From the UHGV virus genome UHGV-0115522: DNA of 34,277 bases; one strand, written 5' to 3'. Below the pieces are notes generated by a model that was not told the DNA's origin, made no database searches, and saw only the letters and a list, made by a program, of their open reading frames with translations. Shown piece after piece: positions 3,104-25,536 of the stretch (position 1 is the stretch's first letter; every line of letters starts with the position of its first letter). The translations under genes and the position numbers were made by a program. This DNA is from a virus.

Positions 3104-3209
3104 GCACAAAAGAGCGGGTTTGTATTCCGCATCCAATCAATCAAGAAGGAGTATAGCACACAGGTACTGAAGTGAAAAAATGTGATTAGCGATAAACAAA
3201 ATATCTATC

Positions 3210-3226
3210 ATTGCTCTAATTAATCG
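3210..3226 (+). promoter_or_regulatory. C1 operator-like site overlapping the ref promoter
   Basis: ATTGCTCTAATTAATCG (14/17), immediately followed by a TATAAT -10 hexamer at 3227-3232, about 95 nt upstream of the ref ATG. Confidence 0.7.
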
Positions 3227-3324
3227 CTATAATTGAGCCGCAGTTTTTGTCAACTACGAAGACGTTGCCATTACTTCACTCCTTGACATCATTGGCGGCC
3301 ATTAGGCCGCCTTTTTTTTGCCAT

Positions 3325-3885: not shown

Positions 3886-4073
3886 TAAATATATTATTTT
3901 TAATGATAAATGATTGACAACTGACAAGTGACTTCAGTCAGAATCATCACATGCCCGGTACGGATGGATCCCCTTTCAAATATTCCATGGACGGCACAGT
4001 CTGAGTACCGGGCGCTACCTTCAGTTGTATTGCTAAGCCGCCGCTGGTGGCTTTTCTTTTTTGTAGGGGCGCT

Positions 4074-4718
4074 ATGGATAAGAAAATATGCGTTGTTTCA
4101 ATGAGCGTCGGCAAACCGGCGTCAATGACTGCTGCATGGATCAACAATGAGCTGATAATGGCTGAGCGGACCAGCTACCCTGAACGCCGCCGCGATATGG
4201 AACTCCAGCTGCTGCGCGAATTGCGAGAAAAAGAGGAAAAGGGTTTTATCGTGCTGGTGGAAGAGGAAAACAGCTTTATTACCGGTCGAGTTGGCCAGCG
4301 TGTAAGGTTGCGTGATCCCTTCATGAACGGCAGGCCGGTACTAATTGAAGCAATGCAGATTTACAAGGAGTTGGAACGCCAGAAAGCGATCAAGTTACCG
4401 CGCAAGGAATCCGGCAAATACATCCTCCACCAAAGCATCTTCGATTCCGAACACGATAAAAAAGGCGATGAGTTTTTCAACATCAACTGGAGCGAAATAA
4501 CGACAGAGCATGTTCTGACGTTGTTATGCTGCTTCGCAACAGAATACAACAACGTGGTAAGCGCAGACTACATCAGGACAATGACAGACACCGTTACTAA
4601 ACAAGACAACGAATATTCACCATATGAGCCATTTGTAAATATGATAAAAGCATTTTATCGGATGGAGCTCACTAAAGTTCCTCAAGGTAAATTAACAGGT
4701 AAGGATAACATCTTTTAA
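4074..4718 (+). CDS. Hypothetical protein (position of mat in P1 as I recall)
   Basis: 214 aa from ATG 4074 (MDKKICVV...) with AGGGG ribosome-binding site; listed ORF starts 27 nt upstream at a non-ATG codon. Confidence 0.6.
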   Translation: MDKKICVVSMSVGKPASMTAAWINNELIMAERTSYPERRRDMELQLLRELREKEEKGFIVLVEEENSFITGRVGQRVRLRDPFMNGRPVLIEAMQIYKELERQKAIKLPRKESGKYILHQSIFDSEHDKKGDEFFNINWSEITTEHVLTLLCCFATEYNNVVSADYIRTMTDTVTKQDNEYSPYEPFVNMIKAFYRMELTKVPQGKLTGKDNIF

Positions 4719-4771
4719 GCACAGTAATGAGGTGCTTAGATGTTCATATCAATATCCTAACTCTCTGCATC

Positions 4772-5461
4772 TCATAAATCTGATAGCCACTTACTATCTA
4801 TGGACTCAATCTCCGTCAGCGGAATTGATGGGAAAAAATATCCCTGAGCGCCCCATAGCCCTATCCCTTTTGATAACTTATGGCAATCAATGTTTTCGAC
4901 GCCTTCAGCGATGATATTCGGACATAACTTTTTTAAATTGCTAATAATGACATCAAAATGAGGCTTAATCATATGCTCTTGAAAAAATGACTTATCAAGT
5001 TTTATTGCATGATATTTATTTTTAATTAATGCTTTCATGGTGGCGTTACCACTTCCAAAATCATCAAGCCAAACATTATCTGTCAAAGTCAGTAGAAAGG
5101 ATATGATGTAATCCTCATCGCTTAAATCAGGATAGTTTTCTGATATCTCAATCGCTATAAATTTATTGTTTATTAGTAGTTCTTGAATTTGTTTATTGCC
5201 ATATATATATAAACAGGTATCATAATCTGCATTGATAGAGCATAATATATTATGGCATTCAAAAAAATACTTATACTTGATTATTGTGTTAAGTTGAGAT
5301 TTTAGCAAGTTAATCTTCATCTTGCTTGTAAACATACCTAATACTTTCTGAGTAGAAAGAATAGCCCCCTCGTTGGAATAAAATCTGCTCAACACTTCCA
5401 CTGCTATCAACTTGTTAGTGCTTGTGGAAATGATTGGTTCTACTATGTAGATAACTTCCAT
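4772..5461 (-). CDS. Standalone EAL-domain protein, predicted c-di-GMP phosphodiesterase
   Basis: 229 aa with EAL signature positions in order: EVL (in AVEVLSRF), EISE, DDFGSGNAT, IKLDKSF, IIAEGVEN, AQGYFF. GAGGG-type SD upstream of ATG. Gene is visibly AT-rich relative to the P1-like flanks. Confidence 0.8.
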   Translation of the reverse strand: MEVIYIVEPIISTSTNKLIAVEVLSRFYSNEGAILSTQKVLGMFTSKMKINLLKSQLNTIIKYKYFFECHNILCSINADYDTCLYIYGNKQIQELLINNKFIAIEISENYPDLSDEDYIISFLLTLTDNVWLDDFGSGNATMKALIKNKYHAIKLDKSFFQEHMIKPHFDVIISNLKKLCPNIIAEGVENIDCHKLSKGIGLWGAQGYFFPSIPLTEIESIDSKWLSDL

Positions 5462-5683
5462 GCTCCCACCCTCTATTTTTAAATTGGTTGGCTTTAGCAG
5501 ATAAAGTGCCCTTTATATTTACAGGGGTTACACACTATGTCAATTTATTTATCTGTAGTGAAATTGATAAAAATTAAATAATAAAAAGCAGCAACTATGA
5601 CACAAATCAATATTTTTATTTTTTGCACAACTTCTTGATTTCAGTGCTGCTGTATCTCTATTCTTGTTCAAAGCCTCTTTAGA

Positions 5684-6417
5684 ATGGTGGTAGCTATGTC
5701 AGGAGTCTGTTACTTCATCCTTATAAAGAAACCGATAAATTTTCAATTTCTTAAGGATTTCTTAATATTAAATTATGGTGATGTGCTGTTGCTTAAACAT
5801 TCTGAACGCGAATTCTTACAAACCTATTCAGATAAATATATCGAATTCGAACTTAATGATAGTGCTGTAAGAAACTATTTATCTTGTCACAATCACCAAG
5901 GGAAGCAACTTCTGGATAAATGCCCACATTTGCTAAAAAAGTCTTTTGCTTATCCTGATTTATTAATCAGGATGATCGATAATATAAGTGACCAGAATCA
6001 TATACATCCTGATTTTAAGGATGCTTTAACTTTTTCATTACTTTCAATTTTTAGTGATGTTGACAACCTTAGAGCTTTTCTTAAGTCTGGTATGCCTACT
6101 TTCTCAGGGAAAGTACGCAGCATATTTCTTTCAGATGTATCTAAACATTGGAAACTAAGAGACTTAACTGATTATCTATACATAGTGAGAGTTTAATAAA
6201 GAAAAAACTCTTATTAGAAAACACCTCCTTCAGTAAGTTATTACTTGATACACGAATGGCTTTTGCTATTAAATTACTAAAGCAAACCCGCCCCCTCAAA
6301 CAAGTATCAAAAAGTTGTGGTTTTAGTAGCATATCGTACTTTGTGTGCCTATTTAGGCAGTATTATAATTGTACACCATGTGAATATGTAAAACATCAGT
6401 TATCATCTGGGAAATAA
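5684..6417 (+). pseudogene. AraC-family transcriptional regulator interrupted by a frameshift
   Basis: Frame 2 ORF (5684-6196) ends with the first helix of an AraC HTH (KHWKLRDLTDYLYI). Frame 1 continues from about 6172 to stop 6415-6417 with the rest of the domain (SESLIKKKLL...LDTRMAFAIKLLKQTRPLKQVSKSCGFSSISYF...YYNCTPCEYVKHQ). The shift is near 6181-6190 and not in a homopolymer. Confidence 0.55.
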
Positions 6418-6455
6418 GATGCATTTATCTCCCAGATAGTATTGTAATATTAAAC

Positions 6456-6704
6456 TCAGTCAGCATTTAGTAGCAGAGCATTATCTATGATGATCTGCTC
6501 CCATTCTTCGAATGCCCGGTCGCGGACGCCCTGGGGAACGCTGTTTGTTTTGAAATCGACGACCGTCCGCCATTTCCCGTCCGGACGGTACATGCGCAGA
6601 GCTTTACTTCCCCCTTCCCTGCGCACCTCAACGTTATGCTTGTCAGCAAACTCTTGTAATGCTCGTAGCGTCCCATGCTTTACTGTGTAGTATCGCTTTT
6701 TCAA
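6456..6704 (-). CDS. lxc: Lxc/Bof-like C1 co-repressor (tentative)
   Basis: 82-aa ORF; size and position (downstream of the darB-like gene, same strand) fit P1 lxc/bof as I recall. Assignment rests on synteny and length, not a verified alignment. Confidence 0.5.
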   Translation of the reverse strand: MKKRYYTVKHGTLRALQEFADKHNVEVRREGGSKALRMYRPDGKWRTVVDFKTNSVPQGVRDRAFEEWEQIIIDNALLLNAD

Positions 6705-7141
6705 GTTTTCTCTCCAGCCTGTGCCAAGGCTTCAACTTCCAAATCGTAAGACTCAAACTCATAGTCCTGGTCGTCAACTTCTTCAGGGACTGGCAGTAAA
6801 TGCCAGGCTGAGTATATCTGACCATTATCAAAACGCTCCTGGCTGTAGAGCGTCGCGGCTATGAGTGTTAGCGCCGGGCGGTCATAACGGTAAAATTTGC
6901 GAACGTCACGGTCAACGAGACGACCGAAATTACCATAACCGCGCTCCAGTAATAATTTTTTAATTTCCGGCCAGTATGGGCCATAGCTGCGGTACAGGCG
7001 GGGATTTTTCAGTAATCGCCCGCGTAGCCCTGACAGGAAGAAATCAACGTATTCGTCTTCTGTCTTTCCTAACAACGCTGTACGGAGTACCGCCTCAAGA
7101 TATGTTTTATTCGGTTTTATTGTATCAGATAGTGTGGCCAT
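6701..7141 (-). CDS. Hypothetical protein (position of ulx in P1 as I recall)
   Basis: 146-aa ORF overlapping the next gene by 4 nt (translational coupling); no motif recognised. Confidence 0.5.
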   Translation of the reverse strand: MATLSDTIKPNKTYLEAVLRTALLGKTEDEYVDFFLSGLRGRLLKNPRLYRSYGPYWPEIKKLLLERGYGNFGRLVDRDVRKFYRYDRPALTLIAATLYSQERFDNGQIYSAWHLLPVPEEVDDQDYEFESYDLEVEALAQAGEKT

Positions 7142-7174
7142 ATTATGCGACGCCCGGCGAACCGGGCGCTCCTG

Positions 7175-10100
7175 TTATGCGTATTGTTGGATGACGGCCA
7201 GAACGTCCGCCACGTTGTGTTTTGTCTCGATAATCCACCAGTTGCCCGGGAAATCGCTGTTCTTCGCCTTCGCTGGCAGCCAGCGAGCGCCGAATTTTTT
7301 CTTGATTGCGTCTTTAGCACGGAAAAGAACGCCTTTCATGCCGGACGCCTCCTGAAGCCCAAATACCTCACCAGCTGCGAATTTTGGTGCGTACATCATC
7401 TTCAGGTCGGCGGTGGATACGCGATAATTCAGACCAAGAGACTGAGCTATGCTGGTGGCATCACCCTGTATTGATGATAACTCTTCTTGTTTCTCGTTTC
7501 TGGCGGCAATTTCTTCCTCCGTGATGTTGCCTAGGGCCAGGTTTATCCGATCAGCGTCGGCCTGTTTCTCTTCATCGGTGCGCCCGGCAAGAACCGTGTT
7601 AATTCTCTGCAATATCTCAACATGATTCTTGCGCATGCTAAGCAATTCCGGCGTAACCTCGTTAAGGTCCACCAGCCCAAGGATGGCAAGGTCGGAAAAC
7701 ATTGATACCAGGTTGTAGGTCATGCGATAGCTGAGTTGCCCATAGGCTGATGGCAACTGCACCGCATCCATTTGATAGGCATCCATAAATTTAGAGCCGT
7801 CGTTTACGACATCCGCAATTGCCGGTGTGATTTTCCCTGTGGTGGCGACCTCCCTGATTGCTGTTACCCACGATTGAGTCAGCGCGGCGACTGCATGATT
7901 CAGATTGGCTTTCCGTTCTGCTGCAATACGCGCGCTTGCAGCGTCCATTGCCTGCTTGATCTCGTCTTTATTGCTGTAAATGCCAATGGTGCCAAACTGT
8001 GCTGTGGTGATCTCATAATCTGACGCCCGGAACTCATGGGTACCGAAAATGGCATTGGTGACCTCAAGTTCAGAATCCCCGTTACGAGTAGCCCCCTGGC
8101 TTGTTTTCTCCGGCATTCTGGCGATCGCATCCGCTATTTTCTCCTGAATTGCTTCAGGGGATAGCGTATCTCCGTATGACGCGATTACTTCGCCATAATT
8201 GGAGCCAAACAGTTCAGTCAGGAATACTTCTGCCAAACGGACCTGGCGGTTATTCCCTTCCGACATCATACCAAGCACCCATTTTGCAATTGACGACTTC
8301 AGCGCGCCGTCACGGCGATCCTGGTAAACCGCATGCTTCAGTGGGTCCGTATAGGTACCAACAAAATCAATGCTATAGCCTGACTCTGTAGTCTGAACGC
8401 CGTATGAGTCAGTGATTTTGATCATGCCGCGCTGCTGGAAACGGTAGAAATCGTCACAGGAAATGATGTCGTTAATCCCGGCGATGGAGACGCCACCACT
8501 GATTTTCTGCATAACAGCATCTTCATCGGGAGTTACATCCACCTGTTTATCCAGCGTCTTCACATCCCAGTTACCCGATTTGGTGCCTTTGAAGGTAAAG
8601 ATGATCTCCACGTCTGCGCGCTGGCTGTCGAAGTCCAGCGACTTAATGCGAACGATATCACCGGCACAATCGTAGTATTGGCCTACACGCCATGAGCGAT
8701 CGCCGATAACAAGGAACTCATTCGCATGGTTAACCAGATCAGGATCAACATCCAGAATGCCTTTATTTATTGCATCCTCCACCAGCGGGCGCAGGCGTTT
8801 GATATCCGTCGCGGCCTTCTGAGTACGGTTCAATAATTTCTCATAGCGGGAGATGGCTTGAGTGATATTAGCCTTGCGCTGAATGGCGCTTTTCAACGAC
8901 GCGCGATAATGTGCTAACAACGTACGGTCTGTGTGATGGACGCTACCCCAGCGGGCCTTCCAGTCTGCATTATCAGCTGCTTTGGCCATTACCGCCTGTT
9001 TAAATTTAGCTACCTCGGCGGTGGTCTTTTCAAGTTCCGCTTTACTTCGCTCTAATTCAGCGGTAAGAGCCGCAACATCCTCGCCAGCTGCATGTTGCGC
9101 CTTGATGTAGTTCTGAAGGTCGATAGCGGCCTGTTCTTTCTGGCGGGCGCGTTGCGCGGCTTTCGCCTTATCCATTTGAACCTGCATCATTGCCAGACGT
9201 TCGCCATCATCCTTAGCGGTATACATCTGCATTTCGATCATATCGTTGGCGTCGGCGTTCTCCATTTCTGACTTATCTGAACGGAGGATATCGGAGATCC
9301 AGCCTGCTTTACGCTTCAGCGTCTTCAGTCGGTATTCATCGAAAGAACCCTTGCCGCAGTAGTAATGAACGCGAACGCTTGCACGGTTGGAGCCAACTCG
9401 GGCACCGCGACCGTTACGCTGTGCGACACTGGCTGGTGTCCATGGCAACGTCAGATGATGGATGTCAGTCGTTCCTCGATGCAGGTTGATACCCACCTCT
9501 GCCTTTTTGTTGCAGATGATGATCGGAGTCCGGCCCTCCTGGAAGTCGGCTGCAATCTTTTCCAGACCGCCCAACGACATTTCATTTTGCTGCGCGATAT
9601 AGGCGTCATACAGAGCCATTTGCTCGTTGTATTTCGCTATCTGTGCATCTGTTGGTTCATCCGGTAACTCTTTCGGCGGTTTAACCGCTTTCAGTTTCTT
9701 ACCGGTTTTACCTGCCTCGGCAACCGTCTGAGCATTCAGGATCCTTACCTTTGAAGGTTCAAGGTTAAGAGCATTGCAGATAATGCGCTTGAGCTTCTGG
9801 TGCTGCGTTTTTTCGTCGGTGAAGATGATTTGCTTCCCTTCCGGGAAAAACTCCTTCAGCGTGGCAATCAGCTTCGCGTATTTGGGCGTAACGGGGTGAG
9901 TTACGGTCTGTTCGTCAATGCCAAACCTGGCCAGGCGCTTATTCACTTCCTGCTCGAACGCTTCCGGAACCTGCAACTGAATAAACTCGCCCTTATCTAT
10001 CAGGGAGTATTGCGATTGCTGCGTGATTGAATCATCACTGTCGTCGTCTTCGCTGGTGGCTTGTTTAGGCAAACTGTCCGCCAGCTGCTGCACCGCATCG

Positions 10101-11200
10101 GCGTACTCCGGCAGGAAACGATAGGTGATCCGGCGATAGTACAGGTCCATGTCAGTACATACGCGGTCCATATCCCTGATTATTGAGAAGATCGGACGGG
10201 CTTTCTCGTGCTCAATCACTCCGTCTTCATCGACCGAGGTCGTTACGCCATTGTTGGCTTTGGCCACCGCTTCCGCCTGCTGGCGTAATTCTTCATACGC
10301 CGCCAGTTGTTCTTCAGTAAGTGGTGCATCCTGCTGGTGTTCGTCCAGTTCCGGGATCTCCACGGTATCCTTAACGTCTTCCGCCGTTTTAAGCGTTGTC
10401 CAGCGATGGAATATGCCGCGCAGCGCATCAAGGTTTTCAAAGCCCACCAGCGCCATTTTTTCTTCAACTTCACCGCTGATTTTCTGTACCGTTTCCAGCC
10501 TGGTCTTGCCGAAGAATTTAACGAAGTCATCAGGACCGTAGATCCCCATCTTCTGCCAGTATTCCTTCGGCAGCACATGAGAAAGCATGTTGTATGCATC
10601 GATCGGGGTGTTAACGACTGGCGTTGCAGTCAGGAGAACCGGTCCGCGCCCACCATTCTTTTTCATCAGGTACGCGTTTTTAATTGCCATATCCCGCGCC
10701 GATTGCGCCACCGCGCTGGTGGGCAGATAGGCCAGTTGTGACGCTTCGCGACCATTTTTATAGCTATTGCGGTAGTTGTGACCTTCGTCAGCGATCACAC
10801 TATCGAAGCCCATATCCTCAAAGTACGGATACTTCTCTGCTTTTTCGGTACCGGTATCTGAATACTCCGACAATACCCGGCGACGCGCGGCCTCTTTGCG
10901 GTGGGAGTCGGAGTCCATTGCGCTGGCTACGCGCCCGGCGGCAACGAAGTCATAAAGCATATCCTGTGCATGCTCATCTACGGTGTCATCACGTAGCGGA
11001 GTGCGGGCGTATTGTTCTTTGGTAAACACGACTGCACGGTAATTTGAGTGCGGGATCGCGTTCATCCGCGCCGTGATAGTGGCTTCATCTGCCAGTTTTA
11101 GGGCATCGCGCATAACTGGAGTGCCATCAGTACCAAGAACAGGAGCACCTCCCACGCTAACGCGCGGGCCCCGAATCTCACCGTTCTGAAACCACAACAA
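7175..11200 (-). CDS. DarB-like superfamily-2 helicase, apparently missing its 5' portion
   Basis: 1341-aa ORF with helicase motif II (VIADEGHNY), motif III (LLTATPVVN) and motif VI (QRNGRGARVG), but no Walker A (GxGKT) in the 135 aa before DEGH. Frame closes at 11207-11209 just upstream of a TTG start. Long C-terminal extension. Confidence 0.65.
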   Translation of the reverse strand: MLWFQNGEIRGPRVSVGGAPVLGTDGTPVMRDALKLADEATITARMNAIPHSNYRAVVFTKEQYARTPLRDDTVDEHAQDMLYDFVAAGRVASAMDSDSHRKEAARRRVLSEYSDTGTEKAEKYPYFEDMGFDSVIADEGHNYRNSYKNGREASQLAYLPTSAVAQSARDMAIKNAYLMKKNGGRGPVLLTATPVVNTPIDAYNMLSHVLPKEYWQKMGIYGPDDFVKFFGKTRLETVQKISGEVEEKMALVGFENLDALRGIFHRWTTLKTAEDVKDTVEIPELDEHQQDAPLTEEQLAAYEELRQQAEAVAKANNGVTTSVDEDGVIEHEKARPIFSIIRDMDRVCTDMDLYYRRITYRFLPEYADAVQQLADSLPKQATSEDDDSDDSITQQSQYSLIDKGEFIQLQVPEAFEQEVNKRLARFGIDEQTVTHPVTPKYAKLIATLKEFFPEGKQIIFTDEKTQHQKLKRIICNALNLEPSKVRILNAQTVAEAGKTGKKLKAVKPPKELPDEPTDAQIAKYNEQMALYDAYIAQQNEMSLGGLEKIAADFQEGRTPIIICNKKAEVGINLHRGTTDIHHLTLPWTPASVAQRNGRGARVGSNRASVRVHYYCGKGSFDEYRLKTLKRKAGWISDILRSDKSEMENADANDMIEMQMYTAKDDGERLAMMQVQMDKAKAAQRARQKEQAAIDLQNYIKAQHAAGEDVAALTAELERSKAELEKTTAEVAKFKQAVMAKAADNADWKARWGSVHHTDRTLLAHYRASLKSAIQRKANITQAISRYEKLLNRTQKAATDIKRLRPLVEDAINKGILDVDPDLVNHANEFLVIGDRSWRVGQYYDCAGDIVRIKSLDFDSQRADVEIIFTFKGTKSGNWDVKTLDKQVDVTPDEDAVMQKISGGVSIAGINDIISCDDFYRFQQRGMIKITDSYGVQTTESGYSIDFVGTYTDPLKHAVYQDRRDGALKSSIAKWVLGMMSEGNNRQVRLAEVFLTELFGSNYGEVIASYGDTLSPEAIQEKIADAIARMPEKTSQGATRNGDSELEVTNAIFGTHEFRASDYEITTAQFGTIGIYSNKDEIKQAMDAASARIAAERKANLNHAVAALTQSWVTAIREVATTGKITPAIADVVNDGSKFMDAYQMDAVQLPSAYGQLSYRMTYNLVSMFSDLAILGLVDLNEVTPELLSMRKNHVEILQRINTVLAGRTDEEKQADADRINLALGNITEEEIAARNEKQEELSSIQGDATSIAQSLGLNYRVSTADLKMMYAPKFAAGEVFGLQEASGMKGVLFRAKDAIKKKFGARWLPAKAKNSDFPGNWWIIETKHNVADVLAVIQQYA

Positions 11201-11209
11201 AAAAAATCA

Positions 11210-11720
11210 GGAATAAAAAACACCACACAAACACAGCACTGTACCCCCCCTCATAACTGAAAAGCGCCGCCGCCCCCGCCCGAAGGGCGGGAACAACATC
11301 GCTTTTAATTATGAATGTTGTAAGTACATTGTCATCGCTGTCAGTCTTCTGGCTGGAAGTCCTCAGTACACGCTCGTAAGCGGCCCTCACGGCCCGCTAA
11401 CGCGGAGATACGCCCCGACTTCGGGTACACCCTCGTCGGGACCACTCCGACCGCGCATAAAGGCTCTGTCATGGCTGAAAACGGGTATGGCTTAGCAGGG
11501 CCGGGGGTGGGTAAGGTGAAATCTATCAGTCAGTACCGGCTTACGCCGGGCTTCGGCGGTTTTACTCCGGTATCATATGAAACAACAGAGTGCCGCCTTC
11601 CATGCCGCTGGCGCGGCATCAGGACAATTGAAGAGTGACGGCGCACATTAACATCAAACAGACTTGTTAAGCAGTCTTTCAGGGTGTAATCTGAAGACCT
11701 GTTAAATAGTCTCAGAGGTG
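11210..11720. other. GC-rich, hairpin-dense noncoding segment at the darB break
   Basis: No convincing ORF. Perfect hairpin cccgccc-gaag-ggcggg (about 11276-11292), cccgac/gtcggg (about 11414-11440), atgccgc-tggc-gcggcat (about 11592-11609) and a near-palindrome cagtctttcag/ctgaagacctg just upstream of stbD. Confidence 0.3.
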
Positions 11721-11724
11721 TGTT

Positions 11725-11976
11725 ATGCCCAGTATCATTTTGTCTGACACCAGTGCAAGCGTCAGTGAGCTGAAAAAAAATCCGATGGCAACTGTCAGTG
11801 CCGGAGAGGGGTATCCTGTTGCCATTCTTAACCGGAATCAGCCAGCATTCTACTGTGTCCCTGCTGAGCTCTATGAAAGAATGCTTGATGCCTTGGATGA
11901 CCAGGAGCTGGTAAAACTGGTTACTGAACGCAGCAGTCAGCCTCTGCATGATGTGGACCTGGACAGTTATTTATGA
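11725..11976 (+). CDS. stbD: RelB/StbD-family antitoxin
   Basis: 83 aa (MPSIILSDTSASVSELKKNPMATVSAGEGYPVAILNRNQPAFYCVPAELYERMLDALDDQELVKL...) matches plasmid StbD antitoxins from memory; overlaps the toxin gene by 4 nt (ATGA). Confidence 0.85.
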   Translation: MPSIILSDTSASVSELKKNPMATVSAGEGYPVAILNRNQPAFYCVPAELYERMLDALDDQELVKLVTERSSQPLHDVDLDSYL

Positions 11977-12260
11977 CTTATACAGTAAAATTCCGGGATG
12001 ATGCACTGAAAGAATGGCTCAGACTGGACAAGACCATTCAGCAGCAGTTCGCAAAAAAACTGAAAAAATGCAGTGAAAATCCTCATATAGCTTCTGCAAA
12101 ACTACGTGGATTAAAGGACTGCTATAAAATCAAACTTCGCGCATCAGGTTTTCGTCTGGTTTATCAGATTATTGATGATATGTTAATTATTGCGGTCGTC
12201 GCAGTAGGTAAACGTGAACGCAGCAACGTTTATCATCTCGCCAGTGAACGGATGAAATAA
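11973..12260 (+). CDS. stbE: RelE/StbE-family toxin (mRNA interferase)
   Basis: 95 aa (MTYTVKFRDDALKEWLRLDKTIQQQFAKKLKKCSENPHIASAKLRGLKDCYKIKLRASGFRLVYQIIDDMLIIAVVAVGKRERSNVY) with RelE/ParE-fold hallmarks; coupled to the antitoxin. Confidence 0.85.
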   Translation: MTYTVKFRDDALKEWLRLDKTIQQQFAKKLKKCSENPHIASAKLRGLKDCYKIKLRASGFRLVYQIIDDMLIIAVVAVGKRERSNVYHLASERMK

Positions 12261-13119
12261 TATCCTGGTCAGCACTCTTTCTTACCTGCTTCCATTTTTT
12301 CAGTGATTCTTTTCCTGCATGCAGAAAAAAAGCCTACCCTGTGGGCAGGCATAACAGACAATCGCACAGTCAGTGTTGAAATTAATGATGTCACGCATTA
12401 TACCCGGTGGATACACAAACCATCCCTGCAAATGCATTGGCATCCTAATCAACGTCTGAAACAACTGCAATGGCCGGACCTGTGATTTCAGAGAAAGTTA
12501 TTATGTTTATTGAATATAACCGAAGTGATAAATAAAAGTATTATCACCTTTAATATTTATGCTTATTGCGTGGTTTTATCTGGTTATATAAAGCACAGAT
12601 GTTCTTATTATTTTCTGAAAAATAACCATATGGATCGATTTCCCCCACCCAGCCGAAGCGGTTCGGCTCGTTCGGCGTATCGTCGACACTGAAGCGCTTA
12701 TCCATTTCGTTCCAGCGGTAAGAGTTGTCGCTGTCGCTGACGAATGCCATCGGGTCGCTAAACAGCGTGATCCGCCATGCGATCAAAAAGCGTAAGTGTT
12801 TCCGACAGACGAGCCGGTGAAAAAAGTGGTGTGTCTGGCAATACAGGCATCGTCCCCGAAATGGACGATGCCGTTGAAGGACTGGGGTATGGCAATAAGC
12901 CGCTTTATTATCGGATTCAGTGACCGCCTGGACGGTTACTTTTGAGAAAAGGCATTTACACACAATCCTAAACAGACTCCTATATTTCAGATTTTGTTAT
13001 CAACGCATTTCAAATCTCTTAGAAATCATTACTGTCGTCATATTTTCCGAGGCAGCTCACCACCTAACTATGTCTTATCAACAATATTTTGTGAAGGATA
13101 TTTATAATGTAAAGACACA

Positions 13120-16100
13120 TCAGAAACGATATTCCACACTCAACATGGCAGATGTATTATGGTATCCATGTTCTCCAAGTTGAATGCCTGCATCAGCCCG
13201 GAATGCTACTTCTGGTGTTATCATTCCCACAACACCACCATTTATTTCTCCGATATCACGCGCACCATCCTGGTATATACTTACACCATTCATACTGGTG
13301 CCGAAAACACGACTATTGTGCAACCAGTGTGCCTCCACAAATGGTCTGAACGGAACCGCATACCGCGTATTTTTACCGTTTTTGCTGGTAAGCCATGTTC
13401 TTGCTCCCAGGCGGGTGAGAATATTTCCGTTACCGGTATTTTCAATACTGGTTCCGTTACTTTCATGATATTTGTCTGATTTTACATTCATCCGGACAAC
13501 CTGAAGCTGCGGCTGAACATACCATTCATGACTTCCCTTGTAATTGTCGGTAAACTCTCCAGCCTTCCATGAATATCCTGCTTCCAGAGATACCGTAAAC
13601 CCTTTTGACTTCCATGACTCAGCAGGCAGCCGTTCTCCATTTATATGATTATCAAACCAGCTGTATTGCAGCCAGCTATCAAGATAAGAACCATTGTGTG
13701 TTTCATCATTGGCATACCATGTTGCATAAAGACCCGCTGTGTATCCATTCATTCTTCCTTCCGAATGGTATCCGGTGCTCAGGGCATTCGTACTGTTATT
13801 ATTATGACCATAGCCAGCCATCATACCTGTATGCCAGCGATCGGTACCATTCAGGCTCCACTGAGCTATATCTCCCCCTATTAACACAACGTAGCTATTC
13901 CCCCGGGTTCTCAGCTGACTACTGTTGTCACGCCAGCGATTATGTTTTCCTTTATTATACATCCAGATACCTGCTTCATTTTCTTCTCCTGTCATGTGGC
14001 TGATATACAACTCCTGTCCCTGTCGTTCATACAGATTCGTTACAAACAGATTATTTGCAGCAGCAATACTGGCAACATAGCTACCTGCCTCAGGACGCAA
14101 ATTATTATCATGGCTTTCCGGTACAGCTTCAGGTTGTGGTACAGGAATGTCTTTTCTGCTAATCAGATACCAGTTAGTGCTGTTAATCCCCTGACCACGT
14201 TTCAGTATGTAATCATAAGCTCCGGCTGTAATACGTTCCGTCTGAATGAATTCAGCATTATCAGCATTGCCACTGACGTGAATCACTTCAATCCCATTAA
14301 GTGTCTCTGCACCAGTACCACCGGCCTGAGTAACAGCGACACGGGTACGGCCACTGGCATTACCTTTAATCACCAGACGATCTGTTTTCGAATTGTCACC
14401 ACCTGTTTCTGTCTGGAGGAGAATAAGTCCATTTCTGCCAGTGTAATTCCCTCCGACAGTCAGTATATTACCCGGCATATATGTAGTGAGATCGACTATA
14501 CCACTATTGCTCAGATTTCCTGCAACGCCCCCAAACCCGGAGAGTTTGCCCTGCTCTTCAACAATGACCTGGTTACTGCCGAGCATCACCGGTGAATCTG
14601 CGTTCCCCAGTATCACTGTCCCCTGAATAATATCTGTCATCCCGGTCCATTTTGCGTTATCGCTAATGTTCAGTGCACCTGCTCCCGTCTTGCGAACATT
14701 ACCATAACCACTGATATTGTTGGTAAGCTGCCATGCTGATGTACTGTTCAGAGTTAATGTGCCATAGTTATCAACAAAGGCTGTCCCCAGATTATCAGCC
14801 GTGGATACAGCCAAATGAGCCCCCTTATTCACGGTAAAAACACCGGAAAAATTACGATTATTACCCGTTATATCAAGCATTCCCCCATTTATGTTCAGAG
14901 AACCATCCCCTGCAATAGTACCTGCAGATTCTCCTCCATTATTCAGTATCAGGCTTCCGCCATGAATGTTCAGCACAGAGCCTGCAGCCGTCAGTAGTTT
15001 GCTTATTGTCTGAGGATACCCATTCATATCCAGTTCTGCGCCACGGGATAAATATAAATACTCAGTCCGACCAAGAGCATCAGGTGCAGCAAGAATTAAT
15101 ACGCCAGATTTAACCTCTGTATTTCCTGTATAATTGTTTGTTGCAGAAAGTATAAGAGTACCATTACCTGATTTTGTCAGACTTTTGCCGTCCCAGCCAT
15201 CATATAATAAAGGTGAAAGATTATCGGAAAGAGAAACGCCTATGTTCAGAGTGGCATCTTTTTCTATATTAAAGGTTCCATATCCCATCCCTTTTGTATT
15301 ATTCCATCTCAGCATGGATATCAGTTTGTTATCGTCGTCATTTAAAGACGTATAAACATAACTTTCAGCACCTTCTGTCAGTAATGCATTGTATTGTACA
15401 ATGTGACTATTATCAGCGATCGAGATACCTGTGTCTGACGACAATAATGTGTAATAGTCCTGAGTCCAGTTCTTAATTGATGTGTCTATATTAAGCCATG
15501 AATCACTTTTTAATGTAATAGTATTTGCGTGAACATTAGCATTTCCTACAGACAGGTTCATAGATGCGTCTTCATCAATACTTATATTTCCGTTAAAAAT
15601 GGAGTTCTTGCCTGACAGATAAACAGATGAGCCATTCCCAATCATTAGCCCACCATTAATTGCTGTTGCGTTATTGATGTTTTTAATAATTAATTCATTT
15701 GTACCATTAACAGGTATACTAGCTAGTTTAATATCACCATTAATCACAGAATCTGAATAAATATCTAATGAATTATACCCGCCAGAAAAAATTATTGATG
15801 TATTATAAGCATCTTTTTGGCTATTATATAATCCTGAAAGATTACCATGATTACTAATATGGATATCTTCTCCATAAACAGAGCAACCACCGTCGGGGCC
15901 ATATCCCCCCTGAACAATACCGTTATTATTCAAAGTGATTTGATTTCCAGAAATAGCATCTCCCCCTTGTTTTATTCCATATCCTCCAGATATCATGTTG
16001 CCGTTAGTAATGAAAAGATTACTACCATTAATACCATCACCACCGTTTACGCCATTACCGCCCAATATTCCTCCGGAATTATGCACTGTAATATTGCTAC

Positions 16101-16617
16101 CGGTTACACCGGAACCACCTGTCCCACCTACATCATCACCTCCGTATATACTTCTGTAATTATCAACTATAATATCATCCCCGCTTAACCCTGCACCTCC
16201 GCTACTTCCTGAGCCACCAAGACCATTACCCCCATATACATTTCTGTAATTGTTTATAGATATTTTGTTGCCACTAACAGCAATTCCACCATTATATCCA
16301 TCGCCTCCCCAAACACTACCATTATTATTTAGCGTAAAGTTTTCACCGTAGACACCTGCACCACCGATTGATGTATTGCTTGTTCCTCCTTTGATGTTAA
16401 TACTGCTTTCAACAGATAGTATATTTTGAGTATAACTTGTTTTATACGGCACGCTGATATTAAGCGCCGCGTTTCCATCAACACCTGTAATACTCCTGGT
16501 TATACTTTCAGGTATACCATTACCATTCAGTTGTATTGTTTGCGCACCAGAAAAATGAGACTGCACAGAATAAATTATACTGACCAGAAATTGTAAAATT
16601 CGTATATTCTTATTCAT
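13120..16617 (-). CDS. Autotransporter (type Va) with AIDA/pertactin-like glycine-rich passenger and C-terminal beta-barrel
   Basis: 1165 aa. N-terminal signal peptide (MNKNIRILQFLVSIIYSVQSHFSGAQT), long passenger with reiterated GG-x-G-x-NG-type repeats, and a C-terminus ending ...SAMLSVEYRF typical of outer-membrane barrel closure. AT-rich. Confidence 0.85.
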   Translation of the reverse strand: MNKNIRILQFLVSIIYSVQSHFSGAQTIQLNGNGIPESITRSITGVDGNAALNISVPYKTSYTQNILSVESSINIKGGTSNTSIGGAGVYGENFTLNNNGSVWGGDGYNGGIAVSGNKISINNYRNVYGGNGLGGSGSSGGAGLSGDDIIVDNYRSIYGGDDVGGTGGSGVTGSNITVHNSGGILGGNGVNGGDGINGSNLFITNGNMISGGYGIKQGGDAISGNQITLNNNGIVQGGYGPDGGCSVYGEDIHISNHGNLSGLYNSQKDAYNTSIIFSGGYNSLDIYSDSVINGDIKLASIPVNGTNELIIKNINNATAINGGLMIGNGSSVYLSGKNSIFNGNISIDEDASMNLSVGNANVHANTITLKSDSWLNIDTSIKNWTQDYYTLLSSDTGISIADNSHIVQYNALLTEGAESYVYTSLNDDDNKLISMLRWNNTKGMGYGTFNIEKDATLNIGVSLSDNLSPLLYDGWDGKSLTKSGNGTLILSATNNYTGNTEVKSGVLILAAPDALGRTEYLYLSRGAELDMNGYPQTISKLLTAAGSVLNIHGGSLILNNGGESAGTIAGDGSLNINGGMLDITGNNRNFSGVFTVNKGAHLAVSTADNLGTAFVDNYGTLTLNSTSAWQLTNNISGYGNVRKTGAGALNISDNAKWTGMTDIIQGTVILGNADSPVMLGSNQVIVEEQGKLSGFGGVAGNLSNSGIVDLTTYMPGNILTVGGNYTGRNGLILLQTETGGDNSKTDRLVIKGNASGRTRVAVTQAGGTGAETLNGIEVIHVSGNADNAEFIQTERITAGAYDYILKRGQGINSTNWYLISRKDIPVPQPEAVPESHDNNLRPEAGSYVASIAAANNLFVTNLYERQGQELYISHMTGEENEAGIWMYNKGKHNRWRDNSSQLRTRGNSYVVLIGGDIAQWSLNGTDRWHTGMMAGYGHNNNSTNALSTGYHSEGRMNGYTAGLYATWYANDETHNGSYLDSWLQYSWFDNHINGERLPAESWKSKGFTVSLEAGYSWKAGEFTDNYKGSHEWYVQPQLQVVRMNVKSDKYHESNGTSIENTGNGNILTRLGARTWLTSKNGKNTRYAVPFRPFVEAHWLHNSRVFGTSMNGVSIYQDGARDIGEINGGVVGMITPEVAFRADAGIQLGEHGYHNTSAMLSVEYRF

Positions 16618-17201
16618 ACTGTTTTTTCTTTAGTGATGCATTTTTTATCAACCATACAAGCACATTATTTCATTGATACTAATCACATCAGGATGAATGT
16701 TTTTTCTCAATAGAAATAAGTGTCTTTATTTCTTACCAATTTATTCTGGTTATTCCTCTTATCCAGACGTCTCGTGATACTCCCTGTATTTATTATAGAG
16801 TATATATATGTACTGCGTTTAAATCATGAAGACGACAACCTGTTTTACATAAATTATTCCTAAGTATTTTTCCAGAGAAGACCTAGGTATAATGATGTGC
16901 ACTGTCTGGTTTTCTTACAACTGACTTAGCGATCTGCATATCCGTGATAACGCCTGAATAAATAGGACGAGAGAACTCTTAACCAAATAATCTAACACTT
17001 TTAATCGACAGGAATTAAAAACCCGGGGAGGTTAAAAAAACACAAAAAAATGGATGTTTATTCAACTCTGGTTACGTACCATGAGGACTGCATCCACAAT
17101 GCACCGGCAATTAAATGGCTTTCATTGATTGATTTTTTATATCTGTGATGATTTTTTGCTCCATTCCTCAAAAAATGGACGCAACTTCCCCTCTGCGGCT
17201 C

Positions 17202-17555
17202 TCAGCTGTATACCCGCTGTCGTGCCAGTGGCTCATGCATCATGACCAGCTCTGCCAGACGGTAGCCCCGCTTCAGCCCCGTAAACCGCATCTGACCTCC
17301 GCACAGGATGCACTTCAGCGGGTCAACCTTCAGTAACCGCTGATACACCCTTCTCCGCCTGATTTGCATCGCCGTTTTTCTCTCCGTTTCTGTTATGACG
17401 TACACAACATTTTCCAGTAACCGGCGCTTCACCGGACTCAGGAACCCGTTGTCAACGCCACGATGTTTGACCGTTCTGGGGATGCGGACGATTTCCTGGA
17501 CTGCTTTATCATTCCAGCCCGCATTGTTGGCGGTACATTTTGGGGCTGACTGCAC
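17202..17555 (-). CDS. C-terminal fragment of an unidentified gene cut by the adjacent IS (possible transposase remnant)
   Basis: 117-aa ORF whose 5' end overlaps the end of the IS3-family transposase. Contains CILCGG; family not recognised. Confidence 0.25.
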   Translation of the reverse strand: MQSAPKCTANNAGWNDKAVQEIVRIPRTVKHRGVDNGFLSPVKRRLLENVVYVITETERKTAMQIRRRRVYQRLLKVDPLKCILCGGQMRFTGLKRGYRLAELVMMHEPLARQRVYS

Positions 17556-19043
17556 CCGGCGATAATTTTATACGCCGCTCGTTATACCATCTGATGTAAG
17601 TATCCACTTGCTGCATGAACTTTTCTGGCGTGATGCCCGACCATTTACGCCCATAATACATTTCCGTTTTCAGTCTGCCGAAAAAGCCTTCGCATGCCGC
17701 ATTATCAGGTGAACATCCTTTGCGGGACATTGAGCGAATAAGACCTTCTGCATTCACTCTTTCCAGCCAGCCTGACCAGCGATAATGCCCACCTCTGTCA
17801 CTGTGTATCACCGGTCGTTCACCAGCATTTAACGTTTCGACAGCGCTATCCAGCATAGTGTTGACCAGTTCAGCATCGGGGCGTGTACTGAGAGACCAGC
17901 TCACAACTTTTCCATCGAAGCAGTCCACCACCGATGATAGCCAGACTTTACCTGCAGGGAGGTGGAACTCCGTGATATCTGTCAGCTATTTCTGATTAGG
18001 TTGCTCCGCCTTAAAATCTCTGGCGATAAGGTTATCCGGAGCCGGTCCGATTTCTCCGCAATATGAGCTGTAGCGGCGACGACGGTTACGGCTGACGACA
18101 AGCTGTTCTTCCACCATAAGTCTGCGTACAACCTTTTCTGATAGCCGCCCCCCCCCTCATGCCTGAGCATCGCATGCAGGCGACGATAGCCATAACACTG
18201 GTAATTACTGTTAAATATATCTGTCAGCATCGTACGTATCGTGGCGTATTTATCACCGGCTTTCAGTGCAGCCCGGTGATAAAAATAACTGCTACGGGCA
18301 AGGCCCAGAACATGCAGTAATTCTGTCAGGGGATATGTTTGTCTCAGGGCATCAGCGATCTTCGTTTTCTCTCTGTTGTTCAGGTGACTGATACTGATGC
18401 CCGGGTCTTTTTTTATGATTTCCTCCGCCTTTTTCAGAATATCCAGCTCCATCTGCCGGCGGCGTATTTCCTGATTCAGTCGGGCGACTTCCTCCCGCAA
18501 CGCATCGCGTTCTGCCTCCAGGGAAGGTTCGTTATGTTTACGCATAGTCTGGTAAGCACTGTTGCCGATAATTTTATCTTTCCATTTATACAATACCGCA
18601 CGACTGACACCAATACGCCTGGCGATTTCACTGGCTGATACTTGTCGTGTACAGAGTGCCATGACAGCCTGACGTTTGACTTCTGGTTCAAAGGGCGCAA
18701 CCGGGTTGGCCTTACTGGTAAATATACGTCGTCTGTCGGGATAAAGTTCATTAACCCAGCGAGCGAGTACATCAGTGCAGGGATAACCCAGGGCTCTGCT
18801 GGTAAACGCCAGGCAGCAGCCGTGGTTAAGATAATGTTCAACGGCAACCTGTTTTTGCTCATCGGAGTAACGGTGCTTATGACGAATGGATTCTTTTGCG
18901 CCACCACCTGCTTCCCATGAGCGGATCCAACGCCGCAGATTTCTTTTCGAAGGGTAGCCCAGTTCGCGTACGACGGGAGCCAGCTTCTTACCATATTTGA
19001 AATAAAGCTCAATGGCGCGGATTTTTTCTTCTTCAGTAAACAT
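17509..19043 (-). pseudogene. IS3-family transposase (OrfA-OrfB), disrupted
   Basis: ORF 17982-19043 has two HTH modules plus the OrfB N-terminus; ORF 17509-17931 has the DDE-integrase C-terminal part (HSDRGGHY...SPDNAACEGFF...WYNERR) in another frame. A 9-nt C homopolymer (18148-18156, G9 on the coding strand) lies in between. Confidence 0.65.
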
Positions 19044-19095
19044 GTTTTATCTCCTGAGAGTCCAGGAAATCGTCCGCATCCCCATTTACCGTCTT
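17509..19095 (-). mobile_element. IS3-family insertion sequence, degraded
   Basis: Boundaries approximate, set from the extent of the transposase ORFs and the start of the adjacent IS911-like element. Confidence 0.5.
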
Positions 19096-19108
19096 ATATC
19101 TGTAGTGG

Positions 19109-21229
<2,121 letters not shown>

Positions 21230-21492
21230 GTAGCCTTTTTTAATATTTCATTTTCCATTTCAATACGTTGTAGCTTTTTCCTGAGCTCACGGATTTCAAT
21301 TTGTTCCGGGGTAATGGGGGAGGCTTTTGGTGTTTTTCCCTGCCGCTCATCACGTAATTGTTTCACCCATCGCGTCATTGTGGAAAGGCCGACATCCATA
21401 GCGCTGGCTGCATCTGCCACGGTGTAATTCTGGTCAACGACCAGTTGAGCGGATTCGCGTTTAAACTCTGCGCTGAAATTTCTTTTTTTCAT
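21230..21492 (-). pseudogene. IS911-like OrfA, interrupted by IS30 near its 3' end
   Basis: Starts [88 protein letters not shown], then runs into IS30. Removing IS30 and one GT copy restores ...[16 protein letters not shown]-stop using 19955-20008. Confidence 0.8.
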
Positions 21493-21676
21493 TATGGCAC
21501 CTGTGTTGTTCTGAGGTGAGCATATCACCTCTGTTCAGGTGGCCAAATTCAGTAAACCACTTCAGAGGGAAACGTTCAAAAGCAACCGCCGGGAAAATGA
21601 AGGCTGAAGGGCAGAAAAAAGGTTACCCGATGTTAAAGAACGTGAGGTCAGAGACGGCGTTCTGTGCTTCCGTCGT

Positions 21677-22021
21677 GTGGCTGAGCGCGGCACGGAGCCA
21701 AAAAATACGAATTCTCCCGAGTGGTGGGCGTGGCGCTGGTCCGCACATTTCGGCCTTTGCGAAGATGAGAATGAAATTGCCAGCGGCAATAGTGCATATG
21801 GTGCTCTGAACCTGGCTTTCCATATCGGATTCAAACATGTAGCCCTGGTGGGCGTTGACGCTACGCAAGAACCACGCGTTCATTCCGGCGGCACGCCAAA
21901 AAATCTAAGTCACCTGCCTTTGTTATTCCAGTCTGCGCGTGAACAGATTGACGTTGTTTCATGCGGGAAAATGGGAGGTATTCCGCAGATGACTCTTAAA
22001 GAATGGCTGAAGAATACATGA
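21677..22021 (+). CDS. Hypothetical ORF between the IS block and the phosphatase gene (possible remnant of the preceding P1 gene)
   Basis: 114-aa ORF with GTG start; its stop (22019-22021) overlaps an in-frame ATG of the phosphatase gene (ATGATG), suggesting coupling. No motif. Confidence 0.3.
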
Positions 22022-22695
22022 TGGCACCAACAATTTATCACCGTATCGACGGTACCAAATACAGGAATATCTGGGTTGTTGGTGATCTGCATGGTTGCTA
22101 CACCAGACTGATGTCCGAACTCCATCGTGTGGATTTTGACCCTGCGCAGGATTTACTGATATCGGTCGGCGACCTTATCGATCGCGGCACCGAAAATGTT
22201 AAATGCTTGGAGCTATTGCAGATGCCATGGTTCAGAGCGGTTATGGGCAACCATGAGCGGCTGATGATTGATGCGTTAAGTCCTGATGGCAACGTGAATA
22301 ATTGGCTAATGAATGGCGGTCAATGGTTCTTCATGCTGGACGCTGATCAGGAAATATTAGCCAGGGCGCTGGTGGAGTTGGTAAGACGACTGCCCTATAT
22401 CATTGAGTTGAACACCGGGCAAGAAACTATCGTTATAGCCCATGCCGACTATCCGGATAATGAATATCAATTCGGTAAGGAGGTGCCGCTTTTCAACGTT
22501 GTCTGGGCGCGCGAGCGTATCAGTGATTCGATGGATGATATTGGTGGCGAAATTTCGGGCGCAGATCGTTTTATCTTTGGTCACACTCCGGTGAAAAGCC
22601 CGAAGACATTCTGGAATCAGCATTATATCGACACTGGTGCCGTATTTTGCGGAAACCTGACATTGATGAAAGTGAAAGGTGATGGTGCAGCATGA
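22003..22695 (+). CDS. ppp: Ser/Thr protein phosphatase, lambda-phosphatase/PrpA-like metallophosphoesterase
   Basis: Motifs GDLHG, GDLIDRG, GNHE and C-terminal GHTP in PPP-family order. True start may be ATG 22018 or 22021. ppp is the P1 gene name as I recall it. Confidence 0.8.
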
Positions 22696-23393
22696 AGATT
22701 GCTTTAGTTCTTCGCTCTGGTGGTGACTATAACGCTTCCGATGTGCAGTGGCTGGTTAATCAACTGCCAAAAGGCTATGAAATTATTTGCCTGACAGACC
22801 TGAAGCGTTTACATGTACCTGGCGTCAAAGTTGTCCCATTGATCAACCAGTGGCAAAAGTGCCGTGGCTGGTGGACGAAAATCGAGTTGTTCCGACCGGA
22901 TATAACAGATGATCTGTTCTATCTGGATTTGGACACAGTTATTGCCGGTGATATACGCCCAATCCTTGAGAATCCACCAACCAGCTTCACCATGCTTAGG
23001 GATTTTTACCATCCACAATATCGTGGTAGCGGTGCCCTGTGGATACCAAATAGTGTAAAAGCGCATATCTGGAGTTCATTCTGGCAAGATCCGGAAGGTT
23101 GGATTTCTCGTTGTGTCACTACTGAGTGCTGGGGTGACCAGGGGTTCTTACGAAAGGTTATGGGCGATGATACACCAGCATTTCAGGATCTGTATCCAGG
23201 ATGGTTTGTAAGTTACAAGGCCGATGTTGTGGAACCTGGTTCAAAATATGCGAGCGCGCGTTACTCCAGGGGGAATGGGGCATTACCAAAAGACTGCCGA
23301 ATAATCTTTTTCCACGGCAAACCGCGACCTCGCGAAGTGTCAGAGGATTGGCTTCCCCTTATCAGCTCATTTTTTGAGCGAGAATCAGAATAA
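22692..23393 (+). CDS. Hypothetical protein with a possible GT-A-like DxD motif
   Basis: 233 aa, start overlaps the phosphatase stop (ATGA). A hydrophobic strand followed by LDLD ([14 protein letters not shown]) resembles the DxD motif of GT-A glycosyltransferases. Weak inference. Confidence 0.6.
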
Positions 23394-23394: not shown

Positions 23395-23411
23395 ATTGCT
23401 CTAATAATTTC
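23395..23411 (+). promoter_or_regulatory. C1 operator-like site
   Basis: ATTGCTCTAATAATTTC (15/17), beginning 2 nt after the stop of the preceding gene. Confidence 0.7.
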
Positions 23412-23420
23412 ATATTTTTA

Positions 23421-23449
23421 AAACGTGATGTACACTCATCACGTTTTTT
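23421..23449. terminator. Symmetric hairpin with A/T runs on both sides (possible bidirectional terminator)
   Basis: aaacgtgatg-tacact-catcacgttt (10-bp stem) with T-runs on both flanks, between two oppositely oriented operator-like sites. Confidence 0.5.
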
Positions 23450-23460
23450 ATTAGAGCAAT
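23444..23460 (-). promoter_or_regulatory. C1 operator-like site
   Basis: Reverse complement ATTGCTCTAATAAAAAA (14/17); inverted relative to the site at 23395-23411. Confidence 0.65.
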
Positions 23461-25029: not shown

Positions 25030-25536
25030 TTGAGTATTTTCAATAAACACGCACACCAGGAACGTCCGTATATCGTCATAGTTGATATTGATGGAACAAT
25101 ATCAGAGGCAACTGAAGACAGACTGCATTTGCTTCCGCCACCAGGTAAAGGTGCATTAACAAAGGACTGGAACGAGTTTAATCTCGCCTGTGACACTGAT
25201 ACTCCCATAACTCCAGTTATTGATATTGTGCGCCAGTTATTTAACGTTTACACGGTCTGGTTTGTAACCGGGCGCTGTGAGATCGCAAGGGATAAAACAC
25301 GAGCCTGGCTGCGGAAGTACGTAACAAACGGGGCTGAGCCTTTGCTATCTATGCGTCCTGCCACCGATGACAGAAATGACGGCCCAGCAAAGATTGATCT
25401 CCTTAAGAAAATTGGTCTAAGTAAAATCGCGTTCGCGCTGGAAGATAAGATTGAAGTGGCGCGTGTTTTCAGGAGGCACGGCGTGCTTACGTTAATGGTC
25501 AGGGAGTATGAAAACGCGCTTCTCCATCAACAATAA
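25030..25536 (+). CDS. HAD-superfamily phosphatase-like protein
   Basis: 168 aa; N-terminal VIVDIDGTI fits the HAD motif I (DxDGT). TTG start with GGAGGG upstream. Confidence 0.6.
   Translation: MSIFNKHAHQERPYIVIVDIDGTISEATEDRLHLLPPPGKGALTKDWNEFNLACDTDTPITPVIDIVRQLFNVYTVWFVTGRCEIARDKTRAWLRKYVTNGAEPLLSMRPATDDRNDGPAKIDLLKKIGLSKIAFALEDKIEVARVFRRHGVLTLMVREYENALLHQQ

Follow-up and report, generated by a model that had tools for sequence, protein, structure and literature searches.

The ppp-pmgQ Gene Pair of a P1-Like Phage-Plasmid: A Putative GT8-Like Glycosyltransferase from a Candidate Three-Gene Cassette

Identity of the Gene Pair

The analysed stretch of DNA, hereafter referred to as the window, comprises the 34,277 nt of the viral genome UHGV-0115522 and carries two overlapping genes, ppp and pmgQ, which encode a predicted protein phosphatase and a putative glycosyltransferase. 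From sequence comparison it is practically certain that they form the 3'-terminal part of the operon pmgN-pmgO-pmgP-ppp-pmgQ known from phage P1, here located on a P1-like phage-plasmid. The predicted functional partners of PmgQ are PmgO and PmgP rather than Ppp. In the explanation favoured here, GT8-like PmgQ would act with PmgO and PmgP in a cassette that glycosylates virion proteins, ppp would have inserted into this cassette, and the copy in the window would be orphaned; taken as a whole, we give this account an even chance.

The first-pass annotation had described two overlapping open reading frames (ORFs), and both are present with exactly these ends (Table 1). The stop codon TGA of ppp (22693-22695) and the start codon ATG of pmgQ (22692-22694) share the tetranucleotide ATGA in the context ...GCAGCATGAAG..., and an AGGTGA Shine-Dalgarno-like element is situated 10-15 nt 5' of this overlap. 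At the DNA level the ppp-pmgQ region is ~98% identical to Punavirus P1, P7, and P1-like phage-plasmids (megablast). In the reference records the genes are named ppp and pmgQ in P1, and pmgQ corresponds to hdmD in P7. PmgQ is labelled “glycosyltransferase” and Ppp “metallophosphoesterase” in RefSeq NC_005856 (P1), and PmgQ appears merely as “hypothetical protein” in the PGAP annotation of E. coli plasmids.

The gene pair and the glycosyltransferase label are thus already known from RefSeq and PHROGs, so the pair matters little alone. According to compiled CRISPR interference and knockout data (PMC10695390), ppp, pmgO, pmgP, and pmgQ are non-essential for P1 plaque formation. In the literature the name pmgQ occurs in gene lists only; the P1 structure paper leaves ppp, pmgQ, and glycosylation unmentioned, and the P1 virion proteome paper is silent on glycans of capsid, decoration, or tail proteins. 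A literature search for a description of the PmgO/P/Q cassette found none, and for MptE, DUF115, or Maf in the context of phage capsids it retrieved nothing relevant. Of greater value is the comparative result, in which the focus moves away from phosphatase and transferase as a pair: PmgO, PmgP, and PmgQ appear as a conserved set of three enzymes, whose genes recur in the head modules of phages infecting hosts of several phyla.

PmgQ and the GT8 Glycosyltransferases

As judged from profile comparison and a predicted model, PmgQ very probably belongs to the retaining GT8 type of GT-A glycosyltransferases, the group of glycogenin, Gat1, GlyE, and LgtC, and would be soluble and metal-dependent. 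Over its entire length (residues 1-233 on profile positions 1-230 of 230) it matches phrog_1962, labelled glycosyltransferase, with an E value of 1.8e-127. A profile derived from the family alignment retrieves solved GT8 enzymes, namely the Skp1 alpha-galactosyltransferase Gat1 (6mw5, E 2e-8), the glycogenins (E ~2.5e-5), and pneumococcal GlyE (E 3.4e-5). The predicted fold is a single Rossmann-like alpha/beta/alpha nucleotide-sugar-binding domain that matches solved GT-A structures and not an unrelated fold. In the hidden Markov model (HMM) alignment, YLDLDT of PmgQ pairs with YIDADA in Gat1 and with FMDADT in glycogenin, K63 falls on the lysine of the TKL motif of these enzymes, and GDQG coincides with the identical GDQG of glycogenin.

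A lone DxD motif occurs frequently by chance. The guess of a GT-A enzyme made in the first-pass annotation relied on such a motif in the 233-aa protein, and it is borne out by the profile and fold comparisons above as well as by the conservation of the motif itself. In the predicted model a beta strand (residues 75-78) is followed directly by D79-x-D81. V6, K63, D79, and D81 do not vary in an alignment of 77 homologues reaching down to 32% identity, in which the motifs R-S-G-G, W-W, G-D-Q, and H-G-x-P-x-P are conserved in at least 90%. In the family-profile alignment D79, D81, and K63 are kept in 246 out of 246 members, D149 in 242 out of 243, and H208 in 235 out of 239. Because both aspartates are invariant in 77/77 and 246/246 relatives, the DxD motif of PmgQ is presumably more than a chance occurrence.

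The GT8 assignment carries some caveats. In the HMM alignment, the histidine of the F-H208-G-K-P-R-P motif, which is 98-100% conserved, lies two positions away from the histidine that binds the metal in GT8 enzymes, part of their C-terminal H-x-x-G-x-x-KPW motif. Furthermore, the family is undetected by the curated GT8 model: a Pfam scan of PmgQ returned no family at E<=1, PF01501 (Glyco_transf_8) included, an NCBIfam scan gave no match, none of the Pfam or NCBIfam models detects the family, and precomputed Pfam families are absent for all 106 homologues found in a search of 5.8 billion proteins. The kinship to GT8 is visible solely via PHROGs, the family profile (E 2e-8 to 6mw5), and structure. 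With these points included, we remain highly confident that PmgQ is a GT8-like transferase.

PmgQ is 97% identical to homologue cluster P0001. A profile search of 1.84 billion representatives, taken from a library clustered at 50% identity, yielded 2002 clusters at E<=1e-30 and 6314 at E<=1e-3. Tandem PmgQ-PmgQ duplications exist as well (P0160, P0162, and P0219). The Salmonella homologues P0004 and P0005, with 72% identity, are named “phosphohydrolase” by NCBI, and PmgQ matches no phosphohydrolase family; this label possibly derives from the adjoining ppp. A lone homologue with 48% identity is located between lpdA and acnB on the Pantoea floridensis chromosome (L003/L004, 8001-8633), where phage genes are absent nearby. 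For this orphan the role cannot be virion modification.

PmgO and PmgP as Candidate Partners

PmgO and PmgP are paralogues: both carry an N-S-G...L-L-G-x-D core as well as the motif G-S-G-P-S. The PHROG that contains PmgO is labelled alpha-2,3-sialyltransferase, the PmgO/P profile matches Campylobacter Cst-II (E 8e-4), and matches of PmgO and PmgP to the Pfam family MptE-like are below threshold. Single-linkage clustering had joined PmgO, PmgP, and PmgQ into one cluster; this was put down to chaining via fusion proteins and not to homology of PmgQ with PmgO/P.

Gene neighbourhoods were compared for 88 distant viral loci and 83 genomic loci. The viral loci were retrieved with an alignment of distant homologues only, since the full alignment returned almost solely P1 copies; their ORFs were called in a profile-anchored manner, and lineage counts refer to dereplication at 70% identity. 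A PmgO/P-like domain is situated within 2.5 kb of the PmgQ-like gene in 55 out of 91 dereplicated lineages, in 50 of these upstream and on the same strand. Fusions of PmgO/P-like and PmgQ-like domains, in either order, account for 10 of the 19 long family representatives (>=340 aa). P1 proper resembles these 55 lineages in having PmgO/P-like genes immediately upstream of its PmgQ gene; from the window pmgO has been lost, as have the first ~76 codons of pmgP. Based on this evidence, PmgO and PmgP, with their Maf/sialyltransferase, MptE-like fold, are likely the real functional partners of PmgQ in a three-gene cassette, which is widespread among phages whose hosts are Proteobacteria or belong to other phyla.

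Further neighbours fit glycan synthesis. The P1-like plasmids of Leclercia adecarboxylata (L168, 7584-8354) and Pantoea sp. (L169, 8070-8834) encode a CTP_transf_3 cytidylyltransferase of the CMP-sugar synthetase family (PF02348, 3.8e-37), located two genes past the pmgS homologue and two to four genes past pmgQ. The region past pmgS begins, in P1 as well as in the window, with pap, a HAD/PNKP-type phosphatase gene (window 25030-25536). FkbM-type (Methyltransf_21) methyltransferase genes flank the PmgQ-like gene in 15 loci (e.g., L165, 1725-2339), and in L006 a methyltransferase gene of the FkbM or Methyltransf_24 type (8585-9160) is directly adjacent to it, which suggests methylated sugars. 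Maf enzymes place CMP-activated sugars on a self-assembling protein.

Genomic Setting of the Cassette

Capsid genes were detected with two home-built HMMs, and 20 further neighbours were annotated by hand; because just two capsid HMMs were used, the capsid counts are lower bounds. Upstream sequence of 3.5 kb or more was available for 55 viral loci; in 34 of them a major capsid gene is located on the same strand within 3.5 kb upstream, and 4 more show another head protein or a portal gene. After dereplication, and considering all loci, a capsid gene occurs near the PmgQ-like gene in at least 29 of 68 lineages. The downstream neighbours encode head-tail adaptors, head-closure proteins, and tail proteins.

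In an Onishia and a Martelella prophage, terminase, portal, and protease genes are followed by the HK97 capsid gene; then come one to three small genes, among them a PmgO-like one, the PmgQ-like gene, and lastly connector or methyltransferase genes. The cassette of the siphovirus-like contig L170 lies between head-completion and tail-completion genes. A minority of the family is found elsewhere, i.e., beside DNA methyltransferase or PAPS-reductase-like genes, or as orphans between housekeeping genes. In P1 and in the window the pmgQ operon is not beside a capsid gene; its neighbours are pmgM and pmgR-pmgS.

Several loci encode small proteins of 81-96 aa in the interval from the HK97 capsid gene to the cassette (Table 1). 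Their conserved tail, …SSASPAAQASPQ(K)TS…, is rich in Ser, Pro, and Ala and precedes a basic stretch, and it is possible that these proteins represent glycan acceptors or decoration proteins.

Ppp and Its Association with PmgQ

Ppp is assigned to the lambda-type, Mn-dependent Ser/Thr(/Tyr) protein phosphatases as an orthologue of the lambda phosphatase, in agreement with the PPP-family call of the first-pass annotation. It exceeds the gathering score of Pfam Metallophos PF00149 (59.4 bits, cutoff 21.5, E 8e-16), matches phrog_246 (NinI-like phosphatase, E 4e-113), and aligns with residues 11-229 to lambda phosphatase PDB 1G5B (E 1.9e-94). The motifs GDLHG (27-31), GDLIDRG (56-62), and GNHE (82-85) are identical in the 1G5B alignment. 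With 279.8 and 239 bits, Ppp stays under the NCBIfam equivalog cutoffs of the models PRK11439 and PRK09968 for the chromosomal PrpA/PrpB-type enzymes of E. coli (326 and 332 bits, respectively), which places it with the predicted lambda/NinI-type relatives and outside the PrpA/PrpB equivalogs. Ppp was also considered as a sugar-phosphate phosphatase of a glycan pathway; this was rejected, as contextual support is lacking.

The ORFs, the phosphatase, and the GT-A guess of the first-pass annotation held; the functional coupling of phosphatase and transferase proposed there is not supported. Such a pair, in which the phosphatase would prepare the acceptor or donor, or both enzymes would act on one host protein, is consistent with translational coupling via ATGA and with the ppp-pmgQ order kept in P1, P7, the ~70% identical relatives L075-L077, where pmgL-M-N-O-P-ppp-Q is retained, and Pantoea alvi (L214). 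Across the sampled neighbourhoods, however, the association is rare. None of the 88 distant viral loci contains a Ppp homologue within six genes of the PmgQ-like gene, and merely 3 of 60 dereplicated lineages, all Enterobacterales (Escherichia, Pantoea alvi, and Salmonella), contain one within 5 kb. Moreover, pmgO-pmgP-pmgQ are contiguous without ppp in the 43%-identity relative L083, in P1-like 92-96 kb plasmids of Leclercia (L168) and Pantoea (L169), and in L170. A functional pair thus appears improbable.

Since ppp is rare near PmgQ homologues and the cassette is contiguous without it in relatives, ppp is best read as a lineage-specific insertion into an older cassette, its co-translation with pmgQ reflecting presumably just operon packing. 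The lambda phosphatase gene is located in the nin region of phage lambda. As this phosphatase is the closest relative of Ppp, we read ppp as a mobile accessory gene.

Proposed Function and Alternatives

PmgQ most likely binds a nucleotide-sugar via K63, D79-x-D81, and H208, and its catalytic centre would include D149-Q150. Fold, motifs, fusions, and synteny suggest that a UDP-sugar would serve as its donor and that the hexose would be transferred in a configuration-retaining reaction. Together with the two Maf-like transferases PmgO and PmgP, PmgQ may build a short glycan, which would be placed on a virion protein. Flagellin modification by Maf, protein-acting GT8 enzymes, and mycobacteriophage capsid glycosylation provide analogies. 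A virion protein is the most likely acceptor because of the morphogenetic context and because the nearest structural relatives act on proteins; by analogy we rate it as a plausible target of the cassette, at somewhat below an even chance. More tentative is the proposal that PmgQ-like GT8 and PmgO/P-like Maf-fold enzymes form a cassette which is widespread among phages with Gram-negative hosts and glycosylates their virion proteins, and which, complete in P1, would modify the particles of this phage or of its relatives; we regard this as possible and on balance doubtful.

PmgQ, with or without PmgO and PmgP, might instead modify the host envelope during infection, e.g., the lipopolysaccharide (LPS) core, and thereby reduce progeny loss on debris or block superinfection. 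The LPS core is the receptor of P1, and an LgtC-like fold as well as the early C1-controlled promoter in P1 are in agreement with such a role. However, many unrelated phages have the cassette flanked by capsid genes on one side and by connector or tail genes on the other, an odd place for envelope-conversion genes, C1 repression would keep the cassette off in lysogens and thus excludes classical lysogenic conversion, and the closest matches (Gat1, glycogenin, GlyE, and Maf) act on proteins. We consider envelope modification unlikely. Far less probable still is a glycosylation of phage DNA, with the cassette elongating the sugar carried by a modified base. Sugars are indeed added to hypermodified DNA by WaaJ/WaaO-related GT-A enzymes of phages (bioRxiv 10.1101/2023.12.21.572611), and the few family members beside DNA methyltransferase or PAPS reductase-like genes would be compatible with it. 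Against it stand the mostly morphogenetic contexts, the Maf-like partners, which point to protein substrates, and the adjoining genes of the P1 and window operons, among which 5-hydroxymethylpyrimidine pathway genes were not seen. P1 DNA is known for methylation, not for glycosylation. PmgQ as a DNA glucosyltransferase was likewise rejected, as its contextual support is lacking.

If virion decoration by the cassette holds true, capsid glycosylation would reach beyond mycobacteriophages to phages of Gram-negative bacteria, with bearing on particle stability and on the immune recognition of therapeutic phages, and the particles of P1 or its relatives would be glycosylated in a manner so far unlooked for. 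The cassette hypothesis is testable directly in P1, which is among the easiest phages to manipulate.

The Truncated Operon and the Remaining Window

Compared to P1, the window has lost 1201 bp comprising the 3' end of pmgM, the promoter PpmgN, the C1 operator Oppp, pmgN, pmgO, and the 5' part of pmgP. The residual pmgP ORF (21677-22021, 114 aa, GTG start) overlaps the start of ppp by 19 nt, and a promoter scan upstream of ppp predicted no sigma-70-like site on the plus strand. Of 74 P1-like viral contigs, 65 or more keep the full operon, and the deletion junction is shared at 99.9% identity with a number of P1-like plasmids of E. coli, Shigella, and E. albertii. Due to the loss of partners, promoter, and C1 operator, the window PmgQ is probably an orphan. 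Although its ORF is intact, it would have little or no function and is probably a largely vestigial leftover of a broken cassette.

Downstream of pmgQ, two inverted copies of the C1 operator, OpmgRa and OpmgRb, flank a hairpin of -13.4 kcal/mol (z -5.3; this stability was reached by 0 of 200 shuffled sequences), which a consensus terminator scan did not pick up. This hairpin probably terminates transcription of ppp-pmgQ within the control region of pmgR. Positions 1-19954 of the window are not P1 backbone and look like an accessory island on the P1-like plasmid; its ORFs and the insertion sequence (IS) elements next to the truncated operon are listed in Table 1.

Table 1. Features of the window and, in the last row, of other loci.
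Feature	Coordinates	Strand	Remarks
MCP signalling-domain ORF	43-861		
Tyrosine integrase	1685-2716		
EAL-domain ORF	4772-5461	-	
Helicase-like ORF	7175-11200	-	1341 aa
Autotransporter	13120-16617	-	1165 aa; VirG-type insertion domain
IS3-family transposase ORFs	17982-19954		
IS30 transposase gene	20016-21167	-	ORF; IS30-like annotation in plasmid/E. coli matches
IS3-family orfA remnant	21124-21528	-	Abuts truncated operon; IS3-family annotation in plasmid/E. coli matches
pmgM internal fragment	21565-21629	+	65 bp; joined directly to mid-pmgP (deletion junction); = L001 3001-3065
pmgP remnant	21624-22021	+	5'-truncated, codon ~77 onward; window 21624 onward = L001 4267 onward
ppp	22003-22695	+	ATG start; 230 aa; intact ORF
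pmgQ	22692-23393	+	ATG start; 233 aa; intact ORF; putative GT8-like GT-A glycosyltransferase
ATGA stop/start overlap ppp/pmgQ	22692-22695	+	Read straight from sequence
PmgQ K63 codon	22878-22880	+	Family-invariant; profile alignment
PmgQ L78-D79-L80-D81 codons	22923-22934	+	DxD motif, within F-Y-L-D-L-D-T-V-I
PmgQ D149-Q150 codons	23136-23141	+	Family-invariant; profile alignment
PmgQ H208 codon	23313-23315	+	Family-invariant; profile alignment
C1 operator OpmgRa	23395-23411	+	Coordinates transferred from P1 annotation
Terminator-like hairpin	23420-23447	+	11 bp plus U-run; folding
C1 operator OpmgRb	23444-23460	+	Coordinates transferred from P1 annotation
Small Ser/Pro/Ala-rich proteins	L005 7311-7574; L082 9298-9552; L147 934-1212		Also L150, L152, L153, and L166

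Comparison with Known Systems

With the ppp-pmgQ pairs of phages P1 and P7 the window shares 97-99% protein identity, gene order, the ATGA overlap, and the downstream C1 operators; in contrast to them, its copy is devoid of the upstream 1.2 kb (promoter, Oppp, pmgN, pmgO, and 5' pmgP) and abuts IS elements. Ppp aligns end to end with the lambda Ser/Thr protein phosphatase (1G5B), and all metallophosphoesterase motifs are common to both, whereas the ppp gene of the window and P1 sits inside a predicted glycosyltransferase cassette.

PmgQ differs from the GT8 enzymes glycogenin, Gat1, GlyE, and Neisseria LgtC in its identity of just 13-18%, its smaller size (about 200-230 aa), and its own invariant N-terminal V-L-R-S-G-G motif together with a W-W-x-K motif. 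PmgO and PmgP are relatives of the Maf flagellin glycosyltransferases and of the GT42 sialyltransferases (Cst-I/II), but comprise about 200 aa compared to over 600 aa in Maf, and the same fold also houses pyrophosphokinases.

According to the summary of Freeman et al. (2023) in PMC12619734, mycobacteriophage glycans occur at the C-termini of capsid and tail-tube subunits. Relative to the system outlined there, the PmgQ-family cassettes, for which virion glycosylation is a prediction, occur in other host phyla, and the P1 operon is not beside a capsid gene; what both have in common are phage-encoded glycosyltransferases, in case of the PmgQ family predicted ones, with cassettes located in the virion structural-gene region of many phages.

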